DNA from: a virus
Taxonomy: Duplodnaviria > Heunggongvirae > Uroviricota > Caudoviricetes
Reading direction: 5' to 3' (one strand)
DNA length: 39,046 bases
IMG/VR virus record: IMGVR_UViG_2579778894_000027
Both the position numbers and the translations under genes were made by a program. Shown here one piece after another: positions 1 to 39,046 of this stretch. The first letter of the stretch is position 1. The number at the start of each line of letters is the position of its first letter. The notes under the pieces are model-generated. The model did not search any database. It worked only from the letters and a program-made list of their open reading frames with translations, and was not told the origin of the DNA.

Positions 1-348
1 TTATATGCGGATTCCAGCGCGTTCCGTTCGTTTCGGGTGCTTCCAGTTGATACCTTCAAGAAGCATGGATAACTGAGCCGGAGTAAGGTGCACCTTGCCG
101 TCACGGGTGACTGGCCAGACGAAGCGGCCCCGCTCCAGGCGTTTGGTGAAGAGGCACAGTCCGTCACTGTCAGCCCACAGCACTTTTATCTGGTCACCCC
201 GGCGTCCGCGGAAGATGAACAGATGCCCGGAGAACGGGTCATCCTTCAGGACGTTCTGAACTTTTGAGGCCAGGCCGTTAAAGCCATTTCGCATATCGGT
301 GATACCGGCAACCAGCCAGATACGCGAACCGGCAGGGAGAGATATCAT
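1..348 (-). CDS. IS66-family TnpB (Orf2) accessory protein
   Basis: 115-aa translation MISLPAGSRIWLVAGITDMRNGFNGLASKV...VLWADSDGLCLFTKRLERGRFVWP matches the conserved IS66 Orf2 family by recall. Confidence 0.8.
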   Translation of the reverse strand: MISLPAGSRIWLVAGITDMRNGFNGLASKVQNVLKDDPFSGHLFIFRGRRGDQIKVLWADSDGLCLFTKRLERGRFVWPVTRDGKVHLTPAQLSMLLEGINWKHPKRTERAGIRI

Positions 349-998
349 CAGTGGCTGCTCCCTTTCATTTCGCGGATAAGTGTCTGTAATAACGCCGGTG
401 TCAGTTCACCTTTCAGCCTGAGAGTTCCGGCCGGCAGAACCAGCTCGCAGCACAGACTGTCTGGCAGTGTATTTATCTGTTCAGGTATCTGCACTGGTGC
501 CGGGATTTTATTATCCGGCTCCGGCGTTAACGTCACGGGAAGTAGCGATGTTTCATGTTCGCCGGGCGGCTGCAGGCCGCCGTTACGCCAGAGATGCCGC
601 CAGTTAAAGAGCAGGTTATCGTTGATTCCGTTCTCGCGAGCTATTTGTGCGACACAGGCACCGGGTAAAAGAGTTTGCTGAACAAGCCTCCATTTAAACT
701 CCGGTGAAAATCGGTTCCGGCGGATTTTCTCTGTTTTCACAGGCTGAGTCACTGTCGGGGCTGAAGGATATCGCCCAGGGAAAAGAGCCCGGGCCAGTTG
801 CATGCAGGAATATTCACCGGAAAGAGGCCAGTCAGCGAATATCTGGTGAAATCGCCTCACCAGAGAAAAAATGGCGGTTTTGCTGACACCGGTCTGCGCA
901 GAAATGCGCGGGTACGACAGTGACTCGTCAAATCTCAGTTGTAGCACACGCAGGATCAATTCCGGATTATCTGCCAGTACCGCCTTTCGTGCATTCAT
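348..998 (-). CDS. IS66-family TnpA-like accessory protein (HTH)
   Basis: 216-aa ORF immediately upstream of and translationally coupled to the TnpB-like ORF; C-terminal half (RRNRFSPEFKWRLVQQTLLPGACVAQIARENGINDNLLFNWR) resembles IS66 Orf1 HTH proteins. Start codon uncertain. Confidence 0.6.
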   Translation of the reverse strand: MNARKAVLADNPELILRVLQLRFDESLSYPRISAQTGVSKTAIFSLVRRFHQIFADWPLSGEYSCMQLARALFPGRYPSAPTVTQPVKTEKIRRNRFSPEFKWRLVQQTLLPGACVAQIARENGINDNLLFNWRHLWRNGGLQPPGEHETSLLPVTLTPEPDNKIPAPVQIPEQINTLPDSLCCELVLPAGTLRLKGELTPALLQTLIREMKGSSH

Positions 999-1083
999 CT
1001 TAAATGTCCTTTTACTGCGAAAATGGACATTAGTATCGGAAACAGGGAAGGGAGGCGAAAGACGGTTTAAATGATGCGCTTAC

Positions 1084-1190
1084 AGGTGGTTTCACGACAC
1101 TGCTTATTGCTTTGATTTTATTCTTATCTTTCCCATGGTACCCGGAGCGGGACTTGAACCCGCACAGCGCGAACGCCGAGGGATTTTAAA
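1084..1190. repeat. attL: 107-bp direct repeat identical to 37992-38098, containing a copy of the 3' end of tRNA-Leu
   Basis: Sequence aggtggtttcacgacactgc...gaacgccgagggattttaaa read identically at both positions; contains the tRNA 3' end tggtacccggagcgggacttgaacccgc on the minus strand. Confidence 0.85.
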
Positions 1191-1296
1191 AACTATCAAC
1201 CACCATTTATAAATCATAACCTTATGATTTTATTAACTTTGAAAATGGCTCTATACAACGCCATTTGAATCTATTGTCACTTTTTATCGCCACTTT

Positions 1297-2298
1297 TTAC
1301 CCTCTATTGTCAAAAGGGTTCAATTCAACAGCAGCCTCTAAATGACCTGGAGCAAAATGCGCATAACGCATAGTCATTTTTATATCGCTATGCCCCAGTA
1401 TTTTTTGCAACACAAGAATATTTCCGCCCCGCATCATAAAATGACTGGCAAACGTGTGACGTAGCACATGAGTTAATTGCCCATCAGGAAGCTCGATCTT
1501 CGCTCTCTTAATTGCAGCGTCAAAAGCCTCATAACATGGTGAAAATAGCGCTCCTCGTTTTTTAGGAAGCATAGCTTGCAATTGAGGTGAAATCGGTACA
1601 GTGCGGTTCTTCTTTCCTTTAGTTTTAACAAATGTGATTCGACCGGGCAGTACTTGAGATTGCTTTAATCCTTCTGCTTCACTCCACCGAGCACCAGTCG
1701 CAAGCCCAATACGGACAACAACCCCCAAATCTTTATTCCGTGACTCATCACACGCAATCAGAAGGCGTTCAATCTCATCTACATACAGAAACGCCAGTTC
1801 CTTTTCTTCCTCACGAAACTTGCGAATACCAGTCAGGGGGTTTTCACCAGACCACTCTCCAAGGCGCTTCAGTTCGGCAAAAACAGCATGTAGATATGAC
1901 TGCTCGCGATTAACGGTTGCTTCACTAAGTTTTTTCTTCCCCTTGGGATTCCATTCTCCTGATAGCCTTCTTTCCCGATAAGTAGCAAACATATTTTTGT
2001 CAAACTGAGAAGCAAATGGATCTCCCAGCCTGGAACAAATCGCCTCAAGTTTGACTTTGCGCTCTGCACCAGAGGACAAGGTTTTACCGTACATCTCAAA
2101 CCAACGAGCAATCAACTCAGAAAGACGAGGACCAGAACCATCTTGAAACTCGTCTCCAACTCTACTATTCATTAAACGGCGCTCATAAGAGAGCGCCTCA
2201 CTTTTTGTCGCAAACTGTTTACGAATGCGTTTTCCCGATGCCCCGTAGGGATAACATTCGCAAAGCCATTTACCTGATGGAATCTTACGAACCGACAT
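1297..2298 (-). CDS. int: Tyrosine recombinase (phage integrase)
   Basis: 333 aa; C-terminal catalytic region HVLRHTFASHFMMRGGNILVLQKILGHSDIKMTMRYAHF (R..H..R..Y signature); adjacent to att repeat. Confidence 0.9.
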   Translation of the reverse strand: MSVRKIPSGKWLCECYPYGASGKRIRKQFATKSEALSYERRLMNSRVGDEFQDGSGPRLSELIARWFEMYGKTLSSGAERKVKLEAICSRLGDPFASQFDKNMFATYRERRLSGEWNPKGKKKLSEATVNREQSYLHAVFAELKRLGEWSGENPLTGIRKFREEEKELAFLYVDEIERLLIACDESRNKDLGVVVRIGLATGARWSEAEGLKQSQVLPGRITFVKTKGKKNRTVPISPQLQAMLPKKRGALFSPCYEAFDAAIKRAKIELPDGQLTHVLRHTFASHFMMRGGNILVLQKILGHSDIKMTMRYAHFAPGHLEAAVELNPFDNRG

Positions 2299-2303
2299 TT
2301 TAG

Positions 2304-2651
2304 TTACTTATCACATAAATCAAATGCAGCCTTAGTGACATCCCCCAGACTCTTTTTTAACCCTGGGGCGGCATCATTATCTAGCCAAAATGGATTATTG
2401 TTATCTAACGGTAACGCACCAAATGTTTTACCTTTTATTCGAGCCAAACCTGTAAGTGCATATAACTTATTATCGTCAAAATTCATCACATAAGGATTAC
2501 CATCAAGACACTGTAATTGAACCTCATCAGTATTAAATGGCCATACCCCATTGAAACTCTCACGTTCAATAGTTTTAAAAGGCATTGCGACGGCGGAAAA
2601 AGAAAACATAGATAAAAAAGTAACTAATAGTTGAACCTTTTTTACTTTCAT
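2304..2651 (-). CDS. Secreted/periplasmic small protein (signal peptide; possibly YebY/DUF2511-like), accessory
   Basis: 115 aa; N-terminal signal peptide MKVKKVQLLVTFLSMFSFSAVA; two Cys (one near C-terminus); SD gaggt upstream; 6-nt gap to int, so co-operonic. Confidence 0.6.
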   Translation of the reverse strand: MKVKKVQLLVTFLSMFSFSAVAMPFKTIERESFNGVWPFNTDEVQLQCLDGNPYVMNFDDNKLYALTGLARIKGKTFGALPLDNNNPFWLDNDAAPGLKKSLGDVTKAAFDLCDK

Positions 2652-2680
2652 ATCATTACCTCAATTTAGCTCAAGTAAGA

Positions 2681-3331
2681 TTACAAATTAAAAAACGCCC
2701 TAGAAATGACACCGCCTACCAAAACCCCTACGCAGATAAAGAATATTATTTCTTTTGGATAAAGTCGGATTAATTCTGAAGCACGAAGTCGGACTTCTGG
2801 TAAGGTCGAACTCTCTGTGTGGCTTGATGCCGATTGTTGCTCTAACCACGACAATGCAGACTGTAACTGAGAACGAGTAAGATCGTTTAAACGTCCTGTA
2901 CCGAAATTGATATGGCAATACCGCAGAAGTTTTTGTCGAAGTCCACAGTCTTCACTGTTACGTAGTAATAAACTTACAAGAGCCTTACAGGCATCATGAT
3001 CTTTACATCGCTCAAGCATTGCATGCAGAAAACTCTCCGCTGTTTTATATTGATTTACTGTCATATCATCAATACCAGCTACACCAATCTCCGCATGTAC
3101 TTTTTGCCAAATAATAAACGCTTCAGTATTGCTAGCTTCTGCAATAGCAGCAACCAAGCTATTTAGCTCCTTACGCTGAGCCTTAAGCAAAGGGCGATCG
3201 TCATCATCATTATTCGAAGGGATTGCGATATTGACGGTATGAGAACCATCATATCGCTCTATCTGAATATTCTTTTCGTGAAAATCACGCCCAGCAACGC
3301 GATTGTTTGAACCGTTTGAGTTGACGGCCAT
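2681..3331 (-). CDS. Tail-anchored membrane protein of unknown function (accessory gene in repressor-int operon)
   Basis: 216 aa, hydrophilic N-terminal domain and single C-terminal hydrophobic helix IIFFICVGVLVGGVISRAFF; strong SD gggaggtg 5 nt upstream of ATG; N-terminus shares a motif with the C-terminus of the upstream HTH protein. Confidence 0.6.
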   Translation of the reverse strand: MAVNSNGSNNRVAGRDFHEKNIQIERYDGSHTVNIAIPSNNDDDDRPLLKAQRKELNSLVAAIAEASNTEAFIIWQKVHAEIGVAGIDDMTVNQYKTAESFLHAMLERCKDHDACKALVSLLLRNSEDCGLRQKLLRYCHINFGTGRLNDLTRSQLQSALSWLEQQSASSHTESSTLPEVRLRASELIRLYPKEIIFFICVGVLVGGVISRAFFNL

Positions 3332-3346
3332 GTCACCTCCCTACTA

Positions 3347-3751
3347 TCACCTACCCTTAGTTTCGTTATAGTCACGACCAGCGATACGGTTATTACCACC
3401 AGAAATATTTAACTCACGTCCTGATGGCTGAGTTTCCTTTTCACTGATCGCACCTTTTAAAGCCCCAATCACCGCGTTTTTCACATCTAACGAAGCTGCT
3501 CGAAAGCGAGTAACCAATTCCTGCTCATCATCGTTATAAGTTTCAGGTGAGTGAATTCCCAACACAACATACTGAACATCAAGGCCAAAACGAGACAGCG
3601 CTGCCAAATACGCAGCATCAGGAAAGCTATCTCCTTTCTCATATCTAAGCTGAGTTAGCTTTTTGACTCCACCAATGTCGCTCATGGCAACTTGACTAAG
3701 TCCCAATCTTTCCCTTTCCTCACGCAACCGCTGACCAATATCATTTTTCAT
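3347..3751 (-). CDS. XRE-family HTH repressor (putative prophage immunity repressor, P2 C / 186 CI analogue)
   Basis: HTH segment IGQRLREERERLGLSQVAMSDIGGVKKLTQLRYEKG; divergent from RHH/Cox-like genes; start taken at internal ATG 3751 (MKNDIG...) because the upstream GTG at 3826 would overlap the divergent gene start. Confidence 0.65.
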   Translation of the reverse strand: MKNDIGQRLREERERLGLSQVAMSDIGGVKKLTQLRYEKGDSFPDAAYLAALSRFGLDVQYVVLGIHSPETYNDDEQELVTRFRAASLDVKNAVIGALKGAISEKETQPSGRELNISGGNNRIAGRDYNETKGR

Positions 3752-3827
3752 ACAAAAAACCTTGACGGGTATCTTTTTTGATACCAAAATGATTTCACGA
3801 GCTATTAGATGATCACAATATACCACT
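3752..3827. promoter_or_regulatory. Divergent early/lysogeny promoter-operator region
   Basis: 76-bp intergenic gap between divergent repressor and RHH genes; contains ttgacg -35-like hexamer and palindrome ggtatc-tttttt-gatacc (about 3769-3786). Confidence 0.45.
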
Positions 3828-4034
3828 ATGAAACAAGTTCTTCACGATACCAGATCACGCATTCCGCGTAACACCGCCACAGGTCCAAGACTGGCACTTC
3901 GGCTGTCCCTCGAGGAGCGAGCCGTCATTGATGAAATGGCAGCTAAAGAACAACGCTCATCCTCTAACATGGCGCGCATGATCTTCCTTCGCGGCCTAGA
4001 GCTAACCCAGAAAGAACAAAACAAATCTTCCTGA
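3828..4034 (+). CDS. Ribbon-helix-helix (Arc/CopG-like) small regulator, first gene of early operon (Cro analogue?)
   Basis: 68 aa; PRLALRLSLEERAVIDEMAAKEQRSSSNMARMIFLRGLE fits beta-strand plus two helices RHH pattern. Confidence 0.55.
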   Translation: MKQVLHDTRSRIPRNTATGPRLALRLSLEERAVIDEMAAKEQRSSSNMARMIFLRGLELTQKEQNKSS

Positions 4035-4050
4035 TCAGGAGGCTAGTGGG

Positions 4051-4254
4051 ATGTCAGGTATAACCATCAATATCAATGTGAATGCCCCCTATGTATCCCT
4101 GCAGAAATATGCAGAGATAACAGGTATCCCTCTTAATACATGCAAAAAGATGTTGGCTGACGGTCGAATTATTATCCGCCCCAAACGCGCCAAAATGGAA
4201 AAGCCTGAAGTAAACCTTGTGGCGATGTTAAAAGACGCTTTGGCTAACAGCTAA
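4051..4254 (+). CDS. Cox/Apl/AlpA-like excisionase-type HTH protein
   Basis: 67 aa; YVSLQKYAEITGIPLNTCKKMLADGRI HTH; AGGAGG SD upstream; position equals P2 cox / 186 apl. Confidence 0.5.
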   Translation: MSGITININVNAPYVSLQKYAEITGIPLNTCKKMLADGRIIIRPKRAKMEKPEVNLVAMLKDALANS

Positions 4255-4275
4255 AACAATGAACAGAGCACCATC

Positions 4276-4626
4276 ATGAAAAAAAACGCTAATAATCCAT
4301 ACTCCAAATTTCGTAATGGCGTAGAACGCCATGTACACCACGTCGCTACCAGTGCATCACATAGTAACAGTCGCTATAACCTGAACGAGACGCACGCAAC
4401 ACCGGATGGCCACGCTGTAAAACAAATCGGCGAACATGCCTGGCTGATTGAGAAAGCTGGAATCGTGGTCCACAAATGCCCACGCAATCCGTTTACCGGA
4501 AACCGCATTTTTGCATTGAACTGCGGCGACAATCACTTCGGGCAGGATTTCACATTATACGAAGCACTTCGCACGGTTGATCGTCTGCTTCGCGGGCAAA
4601 GTTTTATTAAACAGGCTGATTTTTAA
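4276..4626 (+). CDS. Hypothetical early protein
   Basis: 116-aa ORF in early-operon orientation; no recognisable motif. Confidence 0.4.
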   Translation: MKKNANNPYSKFRNGVERHVHHVATSASHSNSRYNLNETHATPDGHAVKQIGEHAWLIEKAGIVVHKCPRNPFTGNRIFALNCGDNHFGQDFTLYEALRTVDRLLRGQSFIKQADF

Positions 4627-4636
4627 TAGGTGCTTT

Positions 4637-4915
4637 ATGACCAAAGAGCATGCACAAGGTGTATTTATCCGTTTTATTGATTTTCGCGGTGAACTGTTAT
4701 TACGCGCATCAGCCATTGACGGAGTTGTTCCATCCGAAAAAAACGCAGCTACTTACGTTTATCTGAACGGTACGCGCCTGACTGTGGAGCTTCCGTACCA
4801 GACCGTACGAGAAATCATTAGCGAAGCTGAAAAGGCACGTCAGGTTAATGGCGATGAACCCTATATCGAAATTATTTGTATGGATTCAGAAGCTGAAATT
4901 CAGAAAGCAGATTAA
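4637..4915 (+). CDS. Hypothetical early protein
   Basis: Start moved to ATG 4637 (MTKEHAQGVF...) to avoid overlap with previous ORF; 92 aa. Confidence 0.45.
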   Translation: MTKEHAQGVFIRFIDFRGELLLRASAIDGVVPSEKNAATYVYLNGTRLTVELPYQTVREIISEAEKARQVNGDEPYIEIICMDSEAEIQKAD

Positions 4916-4926
4916 AGGGCGTTGCG

Positions 4927-5169
4927 ATGGGCAAAGAATATAAAACTCTCATTAACAAAGCACTTGAACGATTTTATTTTCGCTTAAGTGCATCAGGCGC
5001 TCATGCTGAACATGCAGCCCGTGACTCATTGACCAGGGCAATCCGGAGTTTGTATGACGTTGCTTTTTACGCTGATGATCTGGATGCACTTAACGAACTT
5101 TCCGAGCTGATCTGTGCCGCAGAATGCGGGGAACACATTGAACCATATAAGCTGGGGAATATCGCATGA
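4927..5169 (+). CDS. Hypothetical early protein
   Basis: 80-aa ORF, acidic helical composition. Confidence 0.45.
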   Translation: MGKEYKTLINKALERFYFRLSASGAHAEHAARDSLTRAIRSLYDVAFYADDLDALNELSELICAAECGEHIEPYKLGNIA

Positions 5170-5371
5170 GTATATTTATCTCATGGCTTGTTCTGATTAT
5201 TTCGGTGGCCTGCGCCATTGGGATTATGCGAATTATTCATTCAGTAAAAAAGATTGAACGCTTTTTCACTGACAAATAACAGCTTAAACAAAACACCAGA
5301 TTAAACCCGAAAACCTGAAAACTATCCGCATTCGCGGAGGTATTCGCACACGTAAATAACGGAGATATAAA

Positions 5372-5788
5372 ATGAACGCAAAAGAAAAAAACATTATCAA
5401 TACATTAAAAATAGTGTCAGCAGAGCAAGACAAGCTGTCCAGGGCAGCCCAGAAAGATAATCAACATATGGCAGCGCTTTACGCACTGACCATCGCAATA
5501 GCCACCTCTGAAGCAGCCAAAGTTATTGAGGAACAGAGCAAAGAAATCGACACTCTTAAAACACAGTCAACAGTTGCAGCCATGAATCCGTCCAGCATTG
5601 GACGCTGCATTTATATTCTTGGTTCAGCAATGATGCCGCAATACACCATTATTGCCGAACTGCACGGCAAATACCTGATAACGCCTTACCACACAAAAGA
5701 GTCAGAGCTTCTGACAAATCTCCGCCTGATAGAACGCTCTCAAGCTGTATTCATTGATGACGCGCAACGTGCCGTATTTAACGCATAG
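5372..5788 (+). CDS. Hypothetical early protein
   Basis: 138-aa ORF with SD acggag upstream. Confidence 0.5.
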   Translation: MNAKEKNIINTLKIVSAEQDKLSRAAQKDNQHMAALYALTIAIATSEAAKVIEEQSKEIDTLKTQSTVAAMNPSSIGRCIYILGSAMMPQYTIIAELHGKYLITPYHTKESELLTNLRLIERSQAVFIDDAQRAVFNA

Positions 5789-5811
5789 GGTTACTGGACA
5801 AAGGGGGCGCA

Positions 5812-6015
5812 ATGGCAATTAAGCATTTTCCCGTCGTTCGCTTTACCTCCAGAGGGCGCGAATACGAGGTCGACGAACGCCTGATTACCACTATCGACAA
5901 ACATCGCTCGGAAAAGGATGCACACCACATCTACCTCACTGACGGCACTTACTTCTGCGCCACCAACGTGGCGCGAGTAAATCTTATCCGACAGGTACAG
6001 GAGCCACGCAGATGA
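5812..6015 (+). CDS. Hypothetical early protein
   Basis: 67-aa ORF, translationally coupled to next ORF (overlap at 6012-6015). Confidence 0.45.
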   Translation: MAIKHFPVVRFTSRGREYEVDERLITTIDKHRSEKDAHHIYLTDGTYFCATNVARVNLIRQVQEPRR

Positions 6016-6278
6016 CCATTCTGGACTACATCGCTACTCATCCGGGGTGTAGCGGCGGAGAGATCGCCGCAGCACTGAATACCCCAACCACAGCCATTAA
6101 TGCTGAGTTACGCCGACTTTGGCGCGGCGGCTTAGTCATCAGAACAAACCGCAGCACAGGTGGTCGCGCTCGCAAAACAGGAGGCCAGGCTTCTTACCAC
6201 GTAAACCCGATGCCGTTCGGGTGTAGCAATCCACTTACTCACATGTTTAACCAGCTACTGAAGGAAGCCAGAGCATGA
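6012..6278 (+). CDS. Putative winged-helix DNA-binding protein
   Basis: 88 aa; MTILDYIATHPGCSGGEIAAALNTPTTAINAELRRLWRGGLVIR resembles wHTH regulators. Confidence 0.5.
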   Translation: MTILDYIATHPGCSGGEIAAALNTPTTAINAELRRLWRGGLVIRTNRSTGGRARKTGGQASYHVNPMPFGCSNPLTHMFNQLLKEARA

Positions 6279-7204
6279 GCACCATCAACCACCAGAAGCT
6301 ACGCGAACTGGCATTTGCCCTGCAACGAATGGCAACGCCTCAAAAATTACTGGCATTTCGCGCAATGCTCTCGCCGTCTGCTGTGCTGGCACTGCTGGAT
6401 GAGCTGGAGCACGCCAGAACCACGGCTCCTGCCATTCGCCTCACGCTCCATCATGAAATCGCTGATTTCTGCGCGACGTTGGAGGCGCCGGGCGAACCGG
6501 AAACGCCGGAAGCAATACAGCAAGAGCTGCTGCAACGCATTGACAAGGTTTTTGATTTTTTTTCTGAACCAGTAAGAAACCAGAACATGCACACACAAAA
6601 AAACCGCTTGCCATGCCTCAATCGGTCAGGTTACATTTCCGCTGCACCTCATAAAACGGGTGCCGGGATTCTCAACCCGATACAGAGCAAAGCGCATAAC
6701 CGCGCAAGCGGTTTTTTTGTGCGTACTGTATTGCCACGTCTTTTTCGCGTCAGAATTATGGCGGGGCGTACGGGGCCGACTTCGGTCGGGCCGGATTCTT
6801 TGCTCTCCGGTGTTGAGAACCCTGTACGTCTCGCCACCCCGAGATTCTCAACTCTGGATGGTGAGTTATTTCTATCACCGAGCAAAGAGGCCACACCATG
6901 GCAGACCGCAAACAGCACCGCGCTATCGCGGAGCGTCGTCACATCCAGACTGAAATCAACCGCAGACTTTCCCGCGCATCACGCGTCGCGCAAATCATGC
7001 ACATCAATATGCTGCATGAGCGCAGCCACGCACTATCAAACATTTATTCCGCCTCTGTTTTCAGCTATCTGGCGGATGATCTGCACGAGCTTCAACAGCT
7101 CATCCAGCAGCAAAACAAACTCCATTAATTCCTGTTCCGGGCCTTTCCTGCACCTTGCGGCGGGAGGCCTTCGCACATCTGTAACAAGAGGATTGCCGCA
7201 ATGA
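6275..7204 (+). CDS. Early-region ORF; only the N-terminal ~100 aa look protein-like, probable frameshifted/over-extended ORF
   Basis: Frame is open to 7204 but composition after about 6575 is Ser/Cys-rich junk and overlaps a better ORF (6898-7128); a T8 tract at 6556-6563 sits where +/-1 nt would give a stop within 1-5 codons. Confidence 0.3.
   Translation: MSTINHQKLRELAFALQRMATPQKLLAFRAMLSPSAVLALLDELEHARTTAPAIRLTLHHEIADFCATLEAPGEPETPEAIQQELLQRIDKVFDFFSEPVRNQNMHTQKNRLPCLNRSGYISAAPHKTGAGILNPIQSKAHNRASGFFVRTVLPRLFRVRIMAGRTGPTSVGPDSLLSGVENPVRLATPRFSTLDGELFLSPSKEATPWQTANSTALSRSVVTSRLKSTADFPAHHASRKSCTSICCMSAATHYQTFIPPLFSAIWRMICTSFNSSSSSKTNSINSCSGPFLHLAAGGLRTSVTRGLPQ
6898..7128 (+). CDS. Hypothetical small early protein
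   Basis: 76 aa, charged/helical composition, SD agagg upstream of ATG. Confidence 0.45.
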   Translation: MADRKQHRAIAERRHIQTEINRRLSRASRVAQIMHINMLHERSHALSNIYSASVFSYLADDLHELQQLIQQQNKLH

Positions 7205-24286: not shown

Positions 24287-26419
24287 ATGAGTACCACAAC
24301 ACGTAAATTTAAAACCGTTATCACCGATACGGGTGCCAAAAAATTAGCTCAGGCAGCAGCGCCAGATGGTAAGCCTGTCCGCCTGACTCATATGGCCGTG
24401 GGCGACGGTGGCGGTACATTGCCCACACCAGACAGTAAGCAGACCCGTCTGGTGCATGAGGTGTGGCGACATACTGTTAATCGCGTCATCCTGGACGCAA
24501 CACATCAGAACCGCATTATTGCAGAGCTGGTTATTCCTCCAGAAACGGGCGGATTCTGGATCCGGGAAATTGGTGTGTTTGATGAGCACGGCGATTTAAT
24601 CGCGGTGGGCAATACTGCCGAAAGTTACAAGCCAGCCGTTGCCGAAGGGTCCGGTCGTGCACAAACATTTCGCACCATTCTGACCGTATCCAGCACTGCC
24701 ACTGTGGCGCTTACCGTGGATAACACCATGGTGATGGCCACAGTGGATTACGTGGATAACAAACTGAAAGAGCATGAACAGTCACGACGTCACCCGGATG
24801 CCTCGCTGACCGCAAAAGGCTTTGTTCAACTCAGTAGCGCCACTAACAACGATTCTGAAACGCAGGCTGCAACGCCGAAAGCAGTAAAGGCCGCGTATGA
24901 CCTTGCTAACGCAAAATATACCGCTCAGGACGCCACGACAACGCGAAAAGGCCTTGTCCAGCTTAGTAGTGCAACCAACAGTACATCTGAAACGCTGGCG
25001 GCAACATCAAATGCAGTAAAAGCTGCCTATGACAATGCTGAAAAACGTCTGCAGAAAGCTAAGAATGGTGAGGATATCTCTGACAAAGACACCTTTACGA
25101 AAAATATCGGTGCCTGCCGTGCATATAGTGCAGAGCTGAATATTGGTGGAGATAGTGAAGCATGGACAACTGCGCAGTTGATTTTTTGGCTAGAGAGTCA
25201 GGGGGCATTTAACCATCCTTACTGGATGTGCAAAGGCTCATGGGCTTATGCAAGTAATAAGGTCATTACAGATACAGGTTGCGGAAATATTTGTCTTGCA
25301 GGTGCTGTTGTGGAAGTTATTGGCACCCGCGGCGCAATGACCATACGCATTACCACACCGAGTACATCCAGCGGTGAAGGCATACCTAATGCTCAATTTA
25401 CTTATATTAATCATGGTGATGCTTATGCTCCTGGCTGGCGAAGGGACTATAACTCCAGGAATAAGCCAACAGCATCAGAGATCGGGGCGTTACCGTCAGA
25501 TGGGACAGCAGTATCGTCAGTTAATCTGGCTTCAAAAGGTCGGCTGACCGCCCTGACAGATAATATGCAGGGGGCCACAGGTCTGGAGTTATACGAGGCG
25601 TATAACAACGGATATCCAACAGCGTATGGAAATATCATTCACCTGAAAGGGATGACAGCCGTTGGCGAAGGTGAGTTACTCATCGGCTGGAGTGGTACAA
25701 GCGGTGCTCATGCTCCGGCATTTATTCGTTCACGACGGGATACGACCGACGCAAACTGGTCGCCGTGGGCGCAGCTTTACACCTCGGCTCATCCTCCTGA
25801 AGAGTTTTATCCAGTCGGTGCACCGATTCCGTGGCCATCAGATACCGTTCCGTCTGGTTATGCCCTGATGCAGGGGCAGACTTTTGACAAATCTGCATAC
25901 CCGAAACTTGCAGTCGCTTATCCGTCAGGCGTGATCCCTGATATGCGTGGCTGGACTATCAAGGGCAAACCTGCCAGTGGTCGTGCCGTATTGTCTCAGG
26001 AACAGGACGGCATTAAATCGCACACCCACAGCGCCAGCGCATCCAGTACTGATTTGGGGACGAAAACCACATCGTCGTTTGATTACGGTACTAAAACGAC
26101 CAGTTCATTTGATTACGGCACAAAAACCACAAATAGCGCAGGAGCTCATTCACACAATATACCTGTTGGTCACACTGGCGCGGGGAATGGTGTATCAGCC
26201 GGTTATAACGCTGCGTTAGGTACTGGTACCACGTCGAGCGCAGGAGGGCATGCTCACAATGTATATATCGGTGCCCATAACCACACTATCGGCATTGGTG
26301 CTCATGCCCATTCTGTCATTATTGGTCCCCACGGACACACCATCACCGTTAATGCTACGGGGAACGCAGAAAACACCGTAAAAAACATCGCATTTAACTA
26401 TATTGTGAGGCTTGCATAA
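24287..26419 (+). CDS. Tail fibre protein H with His-x-His repeat tip
   Basis: 710 aa; conserved N-terminal fibre attachment region; internal ~36-aa repeats ([21 protein letters not shown]); C-terminal HxH repeats. Confidence 0.85.
26057..26130 (+). repeat. Imperfect 30-bp tandem repeat inside tail-fibre gene (encodes [10 protein letters not shown] x about 2.5)
   Basis: Units at 26057-26086, 26087-26116 and partial third. Confidence 0.7.
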
Positions 26420-26997
26420 TGACATTCAGAATGAGTGAACAATCACGGACCATAAAAATTTATAATCTACTGACCGGAACCAATGAGTTTATTGGTGAAG
26501 GTGATGCATACATTCCACCTCATACAGGTCTGCCTGCAAACAGTACCGATATTGCCCCGCCAGATATTCCGGCTGGCTTCGTGGCCGTTTTCAACAGTGA
26601 TGAGGCATCGTGGCATCTCGTTGAAGACCATCGGGGTAAAACGGTTTATGACGTGGCATCAGGGGACTCGTTATTTATTTCTGAACTCGGTCCATTACCG
26701 GAAAATGTTACCTGGTTGTCGCCGTATGGAGAGTATCAGAAGTGGAACGGCACATCCTGGGTGAAAGATGCAGAAGCAGAAAAACTGTTTCGGATAAGGG
26801 AGGCGGAAGAAACAAAAAACAGCCTGATGCAGGTAGCCAGCGAGCATATTGCGCCACTTCAGGATGCCGTAGATTTGGATATTGCAACGGAGGAAGAGGC
26901 ATCGTTACTGGCTGCATGGAAGACATACCGGGTATTGTTGAATCGTGTTAATACAGCGGTAGCAGCGGATGTTGAGTGGCCAGTCGCCCCACAATAA
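26419..26997 (+). CDS. Tail fibre assembly chaperone G
   Basis: 192 aa; ATGA-coupled to H. Confidence 0.75.
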
Positions 26998-38000: not shown

Positions 38001-38098
38001 CACGACACTGCTTATTGCTTTGATTTTATTCTTATCTTTCCCATGGTACCCGGAGCGGGACTTGAACCCGCACAGCGCGAACGCCGAGGGATTTTAAA
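37992..38098. repeat. attR: 107-bp direct repeat identical to 1084-1190, overlapping the intact tRNA-Leu 3' end
   Basis: Identical sequence by eye to left copy; spans part of terminator hairpin and the 3' 55 nt of the tRNA. Confidence 0.85.
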
Positions 38099-38130
38099 TC
38101 CCTTGTGTCTACCGATTCCACCATCCGGGC
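38044..38130 (-). tRNA. leuZ: tRNA-Leu (anticodon UAA)
   Basis: Minus-strand sequence GCCCGGATGGTGGAATCGGTAGACACAAGGGATTTAAAATCCC...GGGTTCAAGTCCCGCTCCGGGTACCA, 87 nt with long variable arm and encoded CCA. Confidence 0.9.
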
Positions 38131-38142
38131 TCGGGAAGAAAG

Positions 38143-38216
38143 TGGAGGCGCGTTCCGGAGTCGAACCGGACTAGACGGATTTGCAATCCGCTACATAACC
38201 GCTTTGTTAACGCGCC
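38143..38216 (-). tRNA. cysT: tRNA-Cys (anticodon GCA)
   Basis: Minus-strand GGCGCGTTAACAAAGCGGTTATGTAGCGGATTGCAAATCCGTCTAGTCCGGTTCGACTCCGGAACGCGCCTCCA. Confidence 0.9.
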
Positions 38217-38270
38217 AAATTCTTCAGGCCTTTCAGCCAGACATCCGCTTGACGCCGATGTCTTTTAAAC

Positions 38271-38346
<76 letters not shown>

Positions 38347-38497: not shown

Positions 38498-39046
38498 TCA
38501 CTGATCAAGCAAATCTGCACGCGCAGCGCTCAAATATTGCAACATTGACCACAGAGTCAGTACCGCAGCCACAAAGAAAAGTGCAATACCGGCGTACTCA
38601 ACCCAAATGTTCGGACGCCACAGCAGCCAGGCCAACGCCACCATCTGGGCAGTGGTTTTCACTTTCCCAATCCAGGAGACAGCCACGCTACTGCGTTTAC
38701 CCAACTCCGCCATCCATTCGCGTAGCGCAGAAATAATAATTTCACGGGCGATCATCGTTGCCGCCGGTAGGGTCACCCACCAGCTGTGATAATGCTCGGT
38801 TACCAGCACCATGGCGATAGCCACGAGAACTTTATCTGCTACAGGGTCAAGGAAAGCACCAAACCGGGTACTCTGGTTCCAGCGGCGTGCCAGAAAACCA
38901 TCGAACCAGTCAGTCACCGCCGCGACGCAGAAAATGAGCGCGGCGGCAAACGGCGACCAGGTGACAGGCAGATAAAAGACCAATACAAAGAATGGGATAA
39001 GGATGACACGGAACAGTGTAAGCAACGTAGGGATATTAAATTGCAT
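38498..39046 (-). CDS. pgsA: CDP-diacylglycerol--glycerol-3-phosphate 3-phosphatidyltransferase
   Basis: 182-aa translation [30 protein letters not shown]...[27 protein letters not shown] with CDP-alcohol phosphatidyltransferase motif; matches E. coli PgsA by recall; complete in window. Confidence 0.9.

Follow-up and report, generated by a model that had tools for sequence, protein, structure and literature searches.

A motif shared by the immunity repressor and a predicted tail-anchored Flk_N protein encoded beside it in a predicted P2-like prophage of Escherichia coli

We analysed the viral record IMGVR_UViG_2579778894_000027 (IMG/VR; Caudoviricetes), a stretch of 39,046 nucleotides (nt) that we refer to as the window and that, judged by its sequence, comes from a P2-like prophage of Escherichia coli. 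Our subject is a segment of its minus strand in which two genes, encoding proteins of 216 and 115 amino acids (aa), lie between the immunity repressor gene and the integrase gene int; the 216-aa protein is called the companion below. The genes of this region are as follows.

3347–3751, minus strand: immunity repressor, 134 aa (Pfam HTH_31/HTH_3, PHROG repressor families).
2681–3331, minus strand: 216-aa companion, with a motif-bearing head, an Flk_N helical domain, a variable linker and a predicted C-terminal tail anchor (PF27202, NF007987, phrog_5825, AlphaFold2).
2304–2651, minus strand: 115-aa predicted secreted protein of the DUF2511/YebY family, a variable cargo gene (PF10709, phrog_2950, AlphaFold2).
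1297–2298, minus strand: tyrosine integrase int, 333 aa (Pfam Int_N and Phage_integrase), the end gene of the predicted lysogenic operon.

Both intervening genes were found as open reading frames (ORFs) where a first-pass annotation of this DNA had placed them, on the same strand as their neighbours. The tight packing it described also stood, with stop-to-next-start gaps of 15, 29 and 5 nt along the series repressor, 216-aa gene, 115-aa gene and int, each one less than the 16, 30 and 6 nt originally given. Its statement that the repressor and int are neighbours in P2 and 186 is likewise correct, the P2 C and int genes being 115 nt apart and 186 cI and int abutting. The longest ORF for the repressor spans 3347–3826; the supported start is the ATG at 3751 (RefSeq, 405 nt), which is backed by repressor homologues that begin M-x-N-x-IG-x-RLREER. 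Both intervening genes have good ribosome-binding sites ahead of their starts, GGAGG at a distance of 6 nt for the 216-aa gene and GAGG for the 115-aa gene, and a consensus scan of the minus strand from 1000 to 4300 found no terminator-like site. We predict that the repressor, the 216-aa gene, the 115-aa gene and int form one lysogenic operon with two separate things inside it. The repressor and 216-aa ORFs share one reading frame, split by TGA TAG TAG and then GGA GGT GAC (3332–3349, minus strand).

The repressor is composed of an XRE-type helix-turn-helix (HTH) domain (residues 5–55), a conserved helix, FRAASLDVKNAVIGALKGA, and a disordered C-terminal tail with a basic end, and this helix-plus-tail layout is common to 233 repressor homologues. 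The companion carries the Pfam domain PF27202 (Flk_N), which precomputed annotations assign to its cluster and to nearly all homologues, and matches phrog_5825 with an E-value (E) of 4e-103. Residues 37–166 align with profile positions 20–149 of 339 in the NCBIfam model for Flk (NF007987, E 8.6e-16), at a score of 58.1 bits that lies below the Flk equivalog cut-off of 353. Hydropathy analysis revealed one strongly hydrophobic stretch (residues 195–213, Kyte-Doolittle 19-residue mean 2.36), and the AlphaFold2 model (predicted local distance difference test score, pLDDT, 73.7) contains a disordered head (1–45, with pLDDT below 50 for residues 1–27), six helices (50–172) and a terminal transmembrane (TM) helix (192–215), in agreement with the single C-terminal TM anchor proposed at first. 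In an alignment of 20 homologues, residues 1–165 are strongly conserved and 166–185 form a variable linker; the hydrophobic segment, ending 1–3 residues from the C-terminus, is conserved in position and variable in sequence. The companion is predicted from these analyses, and for its topology by analogy with Flk, to be a tail-anchored inner-membrane protein with a cytoplasmic N-terminal bulk, whose parts map to the window as follows.

2816–3196, minus strand: companion Flk_N domain, six helices, predicted cytoplasmic, residues ~46–172.
2687–2758, minus strand: predicted companion C-terminal transmembrane tail anchor, residues 192–215 (hydropathy and AlphaFold2).

A search for Flk_N proteins among 1.8 billion representatives retrieved only 134 clusters in two size classes: true Flk, of 320–430 aa and starting MQP-x-SG, and short proteins of ~185–225 aa whose N-terminal head is distinctive and which end in a TM segment. 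By sequence, the companion matched no solved structure. The Foldseek comparison recommended in the first-pass annotation returned the YebY/MlbQ fold for the 115-aa protein, described below, and small helical bundles for the companion, whose top viral match was an ORF6C-domain (antirepressor-type) protein (E 4.4e-3, TM-score 0.25–0.29); its helical domain resembles small peptide- or protein-binding bundles such as the Red-beta C-terminal domain with the SSB C-terminal peptide (8tfu). Residues 49–108 also match phrog_245 Ant weakly (E 0.004), and a natural fusion of Rha-N with an Flk_N-like domain (P0227) provides a weak link to antirepressor-type families. The companion matched no peptidase family in Pfam or NCBIfam and contains no HEXXH, and the earlier remark that neither protein has an obvious catalytic motif is borne out by the lack of any catalytic signature for the two in Pfam, PADLOC and NCBIfam.

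The repressor tail and the companion head have a motif of ~15 residues in common, in which 10 of 17 residues are identical in the window.

3362–3412, minus strand: repressor tail motif LNISGGNNRIAGRDYNE, residues 114–130, in the top local alignment with the companion.
3275–3325, minus strand: companion head motif VNSNGSNNRVAGRDFHE, residues 3–19, predicted disordered yet almost invariant in homologues.

The repressor ends in ...LNISGGNNRIAGRDYNETKGR and the companion starts with MAVNSNGSNNRVAGRDFHEKN. When the two proteins are aligned locally over their full lengths, the motif gives the highest score, which none of 5000 shuffles reached, and no further copy appeared when all six frames of the window were translated. 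Residues S5, G7, N10, R11, G14, D16 and E19 of the companion head are invariant in the 20-homologue alignment, and the repressor tail is conserved within the enterobacterial P2-like group and different in other lineages, where the two copies again match each other, as these pairs illustrate.

Pectobacterium: repressor tail QIFNGDISGQFAGNQIIN, companion head QEFNGTAQGQFSSRDIIN.
Ralstonia: repressor tail QVINGGSNNVQIGSV, companion head QSITDGNGNVQIGKV.

Tail and head match likewise in Gilliamella, Burkholderia and Pseudomonas, and in each of these genera, as in Pectobacterium and Ralstonia, each motif scores highest against its own partner. When the tails and heads of seven lineage representatives were paired in all 5040 permutations, the cognate assignment came out as the single best. 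Synonymous codons were compared: 45 of the 84 identical motif residues are encoded by different codons (6 of 10 in the window), and nucleotide identity over the motif is only 53–67% in eight of nine loci compared. Because the codons differ and the two Ralstonia genes are convergent, the similarity is maintained at the level of the protein rather than of the DNA. A negative control is provided by a repressor homologue of a related P2-like prophage (P0360), which lacks the tail motif and is not accompanied by an Flk_N gene. The same tail is retained in E. coli prophages whose HTH domain is clearly different (L024, L028). In a mirror-tree comparison of 29 unique loci, which the filter had left with one HTH type, the identities of HTH domain, tail region and companion all correlate, a result that favours no reading.

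The association of the two genes is highly constant. A motif-ending repressor ORF directly precedes the companion at 80 of 80 IMG/VR loci and at eight of nine species-representative genome loci, the ninth (L011) being a 1.5-kb contig that was left out. The same pairing occurs at Klebsiella, E. coli, Citrobacter and Salmonella loci, and also in Mu-like prophages of Pectobacterium, Gilliamella, Burkholderia and Pseudomonas, where the pair lies at the repressor end with no adjacent int; these prophages were recognised by a nearby rve transposase, MuB-like ATPase, DUF3102, holin and transglycosylase. Repressor and companion thus constitute a portable two-gene immunity module of P2-like and Mu-like temperate phages. 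The block from repressor to int in the window is 97.6% identical to Escherichia phage 520873 (genus Xuanwuvirus), and the same 1.6-kb block is present in 521 of 5426 complete E. coli genomes, in 480 of them at 99% identity or more; since it recurs in this way across E. coli genomes, the 216-aa and 115-aa genes are evidently real and maintained. Klebsiella, Salmonella and Enterobacter are among the hosts in which related versions of the module are very common.

Several loci show variants of this arrangement. In the P2-like Ralstonia phage YO077_2 (L023, 2899–4435), an Flk_N-like protein without a C-terminal TM segment is encoded convergently with the repressor, and the motifs match (GNGNVQIGKV / GSNNVQIGSV); given this homologue without a TM segment, membrane anchoring is not universal in the companion family. 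A Salmonella enterica contig (L040, 767–4193) encodes three tandem XRE repressors (141, 124 and 121 aa), two with the tail motif and the third with a degraded tail, followed by one Flk_N gene (227 aa) and a 440-aa cargo gene with TM and BRCT parts. The companion of a Burkholderia Mu-like prophage (L020, 4429–5340) has 303 aa; its head motif and the first half of Flk_N are continued by a coiled coil, an internal TM segment and a cysteine-containing C-terminal part of ~60 aa that is presumably extracytoplasmic, so that it could be a bitopic version able to sense the periplasm.

The 115-aa gene behaves differently from the companion gene. Its product begins with MKVKK, a hydrophobic core and A-V-A, which reads as a signal-peptidase-I-type signal with no lipobox cysteine, in keeping with the signal peptide noted at first.

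2586–2651, minus strand: predicted signal peptide of the 115-aa protein, residues 1–22, cleavage after A-V-A (sequence reading).

The protein matches PF10709 (DUF2511) with 28.4 bits against a cut-off of 21, over profile positions 2–87 of 87, and phrog_2950 with E 9e-40, and its residues W37, C48 and C113, invariant in 12 homologues, occupy the positions found in YebY. YebY is periplasmic, with a C48-C113 disulfide, a conserved Trp37 and a first secondary-structure element that starts at residue 25, and YebY relatives occur in other genetic contexts too (PMC8689200). The AlphaFold2 model of the 115-aa protein (pLDDT 73) matched YebY (7n0j) with TM-scores of 0.63/0.74–0.76 and also MlbQ (6qfp, 2mvo), with no further match in the PDB below E = 0.1. 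By its signal, its DUF2511 match, the conserved tryptophan and cysteine positions and its fold, the 115-aa protein therefore belongs to the YebY/MlbQ fold family. It shares fold and export signal with both, YebY being encoded in E. coli yobA-yebZ-yebY and MlbQ being a lantibiotic self-resistance lipoprotein, and is ~30% identical to YebY, including the Trp37 and Cys 48/113 positions; however, its gene adjoins an Flk_N gene and int rather than copC/copD-type neighbours, and unlike MlbQ it is no lipoprotein.

The phage-type DUF2511 subfamily comprises 18 clusters, and in the contexts checked (E. coli, Rosenbergiella, Klebsiella, Citrobacter) its genes always lie between an Flk_N gene and int. 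Related prophages always carry the repressor, an Flk_N gene, a variable occupant and int in that order, and this slot before int is empty or holds one of at least seven unrelated gene families, the YebY-like gene among them. The occupants recorded are listed here.

Slot before int: YebY-like protein.
Slot before int: BRCT-containing protein, 288–440 aa.
Slot before int: acidic DUF8087 protein, 85–108 aa.
Slot before int: membrane protein, 242–244 aa.
Slot before int: signal-peptide protein, 137 aa.
Slot before int: 73-aa protein.
Slot before int: ~300-aa protein.
Slot before int: nothing.

The G+C content falls to 0.33–0.37 across the 115-aa gene, compared with 0.44–0.47 in int and the repressor, as fits a cargo gene. 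Three alternative cargo proteins that were tested resemble the PADLOC defence candidate PDC-S48 (E 1e-3 to 2.6e-8); these are BRCT plus WYL-like proteins and a ~300-aa protein, encoded at L003 6647–7513, L091 4156–5037 and L040 2871–4193. The 115-aa gene is inferred to be a lysogen-expressed cargo gene, or moron, and its product is most likely a periplasmic binding protein that protects the lysogen. Such a protein may block the entry of another phage or neutralise an envelope-targeting peptide, and MlbQ offers a precedent for immunity within the YebY/MlbQ fold (PMC8689200). New lysogen-expressed accessory or defence genes could be sought in this compact slot before int, of which the YebY-like protein, itself with a solved homologue, is a frequent occupant.

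We put the chances at about even that the companion belongs to the lysis-lysogeny switch as a membrane-tethered protein that interacts with the repressor, with the 115-aa protein as a separate periplasmic YebY-like cargo. The co-varying motif shared with the repressor suggests that the companion serves the switch, either in place of exclusion or besides it. On this proposal the repressor tail and the companion would communicate physically through the motif, either because the copies in tail and head pair directly with each other or because both compete for one Flk_N site, in which case the companion head would act as a pseudo-ligand, or internal competitor. The amount of free, DNA-binding repressor would thereby be coupled to a membrane-tethered regulator, and the companion could act on the switch in either direction, by sequestration (antirepressor-like) or by stabilisation. 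A more specific version, in which a repressor with exchangeable HTH domain and constant tail and a membrane-tethered Flk_N companion with a built-in competitor make up an undescribed switch, portable across temperate phages of Gamma- and Betaproteobacteria, is possible but rather doubtful. Here the binding site on the companion would be vacated when the membrane or the companion itself alters, and would then capture the repressor tail, so that SOS-independent induction is triggered or prevented. The locus is of a known kind, a repressor-associated regulator plus a moron slot, and there is a substantial chance that the mechanism itself is new. If the companion does bind the repressor, it would offer a concrete route by which non-SOS signals control the induction of P2-like and Mu-like prophages, and would give the Flk_N domain a function outside flagella; the matching-motif rule concerns just ~15 residues and is simple to probe by swaps.

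Several points weigh against a repressor-binding switch protein. The matching motifs could reflect a single third factor that recognises both repressor and companion. The structural likeness of the companion is to small helical bundles, which are easily matched, and its viral Foldseek matches all have E above 1e-3; moreover, the AlphaFold2 monomer model shows no confident docking of the head onto the Flk_N domain. Since the early region already contains an isrK/C4-like antirepressor-type circuit, described below, a second antirepressor is not required.

Among the other explanations, we regard as hardly credible the one by which the motif is a DNA repeat or recombination scar at the gene junction with no meaning at the protein level. 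The copies are indeed only ~85 nt apart, in ORFs that share a frame across the short stop-codon and GGA GGT GAC junction, but that layout is not kept at other loci, the motifs still match where the Ralstonia genes converge, both copies are near-invariant within lineages, and the nucleotide identity and codon usage given above are not those of a repeat. An alternative that does use the motif takes the companion for a membrane-acting toxin or abortive-infection effector, held inactive by the repressor and freed when the repressor is lost or titrated. Toxin-antitoxin loci commonly encode an XRE-HTH protein and then a small membrane protein, a layout that this locus resembles; the matching motifs could mediate neutralisation, and the operon layout predicts co-expression with the repressor. 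Yet conservation resides in the cytoplasmic domain and head while the TM segment is poorly conserved and is absent in Ralstonia, the single TM helix has no pore-like features, and the chromosomal relative Flk is a regulator, all of which make the toxin explanation unlikely. A flagellar role, with the companion as a phage-borne Flk that targets the host's flagellar type III export switch and so alters motility or blocks flagellum-dependent phages, is very unlikely. The Flk_N homology itself (PF27202; NF007987), the tail-anchored topology that Flk also has, and the name 'flagella biosynthesis regulator' carried by relatives in some databases speak for it; however, the score falls far under the equivalog cut-off, the phage proteins lack the long linker of Flk and have a head motif that Flk does not, the family is very common in prophages of Klebsiella (one cluster on 754 contigs), which is generally non-flagellated, and the co-variation with the repressor tail would be left unexplained.

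The first-pass annotation had read the two genes as a joint membrane-associated superinfection-exclusion or abortive-infection system in the manner of lambda rexAB, and we consider this highly improbable. The rex-like position stood in so far as both genes lie inside the repressor-to-int operon, co-oriented and tightly packed 3' of the repressor, with an accessory slot before int that elsewhere holds PDC-S48-like defence candidates, and one protein being membrane-anchored and the other secreted would suit such a system. The pair itself did not hold up: the 216-aa gene stays with the repressor whatever comes next, and the 115-aa gene is one alternative among others. No co-variation was found between the two, and the 216-aa family occurs with at least six other downstream families or none, and with other neighbours in Mu-like phages. 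Their soluble parts are predicted to be on opposite sides of the membrane, with almost none of the 216-aa protein in the periplasm because its TM segment ends 1–3 residues from the C-terminus, and neither protein matches PADLOC at E up to 0.1. It had been allowed that the two might instead be conserved core genes with known roles; this applies in part to the 216-aa gene, which is core to the immunity-module lineage and has no known role, and not to the variable 115-aa gene.

We compared the locus with known systems. Flk is an experimentally established tail-anchored protein (PMC6794478) that inhibits the flagellar export switch and is proposed to hold FlhA-C in one state (PMC13344023). Its action on that switch prevents FlgM from being secreted prematurely. 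The companion resembles it in the Flk_N domain, the cytoplasmic bulk and the single TM segment at the extreme C-terminus, and may be likened to it further in that Flk, as far as known, holds another protein in one state rather than catalysing. In contrast to Flk, the companion is ~210 aa rather than ~330, has no long linker and bears the N-terminal head motif; its gene adjoins a phage repressor rather than being chromosomal and is present in non-flagellated hosts.

For lambda, RexA binds CI and biases the switch, and the membrane protein RexB modulates this (bioRxiv 10.1101/2021.04.19.439022). The rexA-rexB genes are thus a precedent for genes co-transcribed with cI that act on the repressor itself. 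The 216-aa and 115-aa proteins matched no Rex family in Pfam, NCBIfam or PHROG, and the locus differs from rexA-rexB in having no sequence or fold relationship to it and in that the repressor is tied to only one of the two genes. RexB is polytopic, and we know of no motif shared between the Rex proteins and CI. In the ImmR-ImmA-Int systems of the ICEBs1 and phi105 type, an XRE repressor, a dedicated repressor regulator and an integrase are encoded in one operon, in the same gene order as repressor, companion and int here; ImmA is a soluble metalloprotease with HEXXH, whereas the companion has no protease motif. Similarity to the Ant, Rha and ORF6C antirepressors is confined to the first half of Flk_N, with every match below normal significance, and known antirepressors are soluble, normally repressed in the lysogen and not co-transcribed with the repressor. 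The variable accessory and defence hotspots of P2-like prophages that Rousset et al. (2022) are said to have described resemble the slot before int in being a fixed site between core genes with unrelated, often low-G+C cargo, some of it defence-like. Those hotspots reportedly lie elsewhere in the genome, whereas the slot is in the predicted lysogenic operon, directly upstream of int.

Within INPHARED, the only matches to the module were Escherichia phage 520873, a prophage-derived record with frameshifted copies, and distant Ralstonia sequences; searching it with the Pseudomonas and Pectobacterium variants added nothing further. The module is therefore near-absent among sequenced phage isolates, though present in about one in ten complete E. 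coli genomes, O157:H7 included, where the block adjoins yecA. Literature searches for Flk-like proteins of prophages, for phage DUF2511 proteins and for partners at the membrane of P2-like or Mu-like repressors yielded no description of the module. A Salmonella prophage transcriptome paper was considered as such a description and rejected, as its 186-like prophage has a different immunity region.

Upstream of the repressor, the window contains a candidate switch region and the start of a divergent early operon.

3752–3827, no strand assigned: switch region, flanked by the repressor gene and the divergent early operon, with a promoter-like site and repeats (consensus and repeat matches only).
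3762–3790, plus strand: promoter-like site in the switch region (consensus match).
3828–4254, plus strand: first two genes of the early operon (PHROG matches).

Direct repeats ATACCAAAATGA and ATACCACTATGA, at 3781–3792 and 3820–3831 and 39 nt apart, are located around the plus-strand promoter-like site; they may be operator half-sites, and recall the operators of P2 C, which are direct repeats too. The early genes encode an Arc-like ribbon-helix-helix (RHH) protein (3828–4034, plus strand; phrog_3431, E 1e-28) and a Cox-like excisionase/repressor (4051–4254, plus strand; phrog_575, E 1e-27). RefSeq omits the Arc-like RHH gene in the O157:H7 prophage and calls an opposite-strand ORF of 45 aa in that interval (L002, 6592–6729), probably a mis-annotation.

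Rfam families were matched further into the early region, with none in positions 1–6000. An isrK match (6644–6718, plus strand, 63 bits) and a C4 antisense RNA match (6754–6841, plus strand, 78.5 bits) cover the second half of a 309-aa ORF (6275–7204), which, given this overlap, is probably not a genuine gene in that part. The corresponding interval of a related O157 prophage is found upstream of a gene that bears the annotation 'derepression protein'. These matches suggest an RNA-controlled antirepressor circuit of the P1/P7 kind in a P2-like phage, and with an isrK/C4-like RNA pair here and the 'derepression protein' gene in the related prophage the lysis-lysogeny switch is probably multi-layered.

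At the left end, window positions 1–1087 are part of an IS66-family element with a tnpB-like ORF (1–348, minus strand) and a tnpA-like ORF (348–998, minus strand); it is a 99% match to plasmid and chromosomal IS66 copies and is located immediately beyond int, at the place that yecA occupies in O157:H7 strains. At the right end, tRNA-Leu(taa), tRNA-Cys and tRNA-Gly genes (38044–38346, minus strand) are followed by a partial 182-aa ORF (38498–39046, minus strand), which we take to be pgsA, the region presumably being leuZ-cysT-glyW-pgsA of E. coli. This would put the right end of the prophage at about 38.0 kb, and the 3' end of tRNA-Leu is the probable site of attB. Finally, a match to Rfam IS009 RNA over its full length (192 bits) was detected at 26762–26960 on the plus strand, inside an ORF at 26419–26997 that comes after a large 710-aa ORF (24287–26419).

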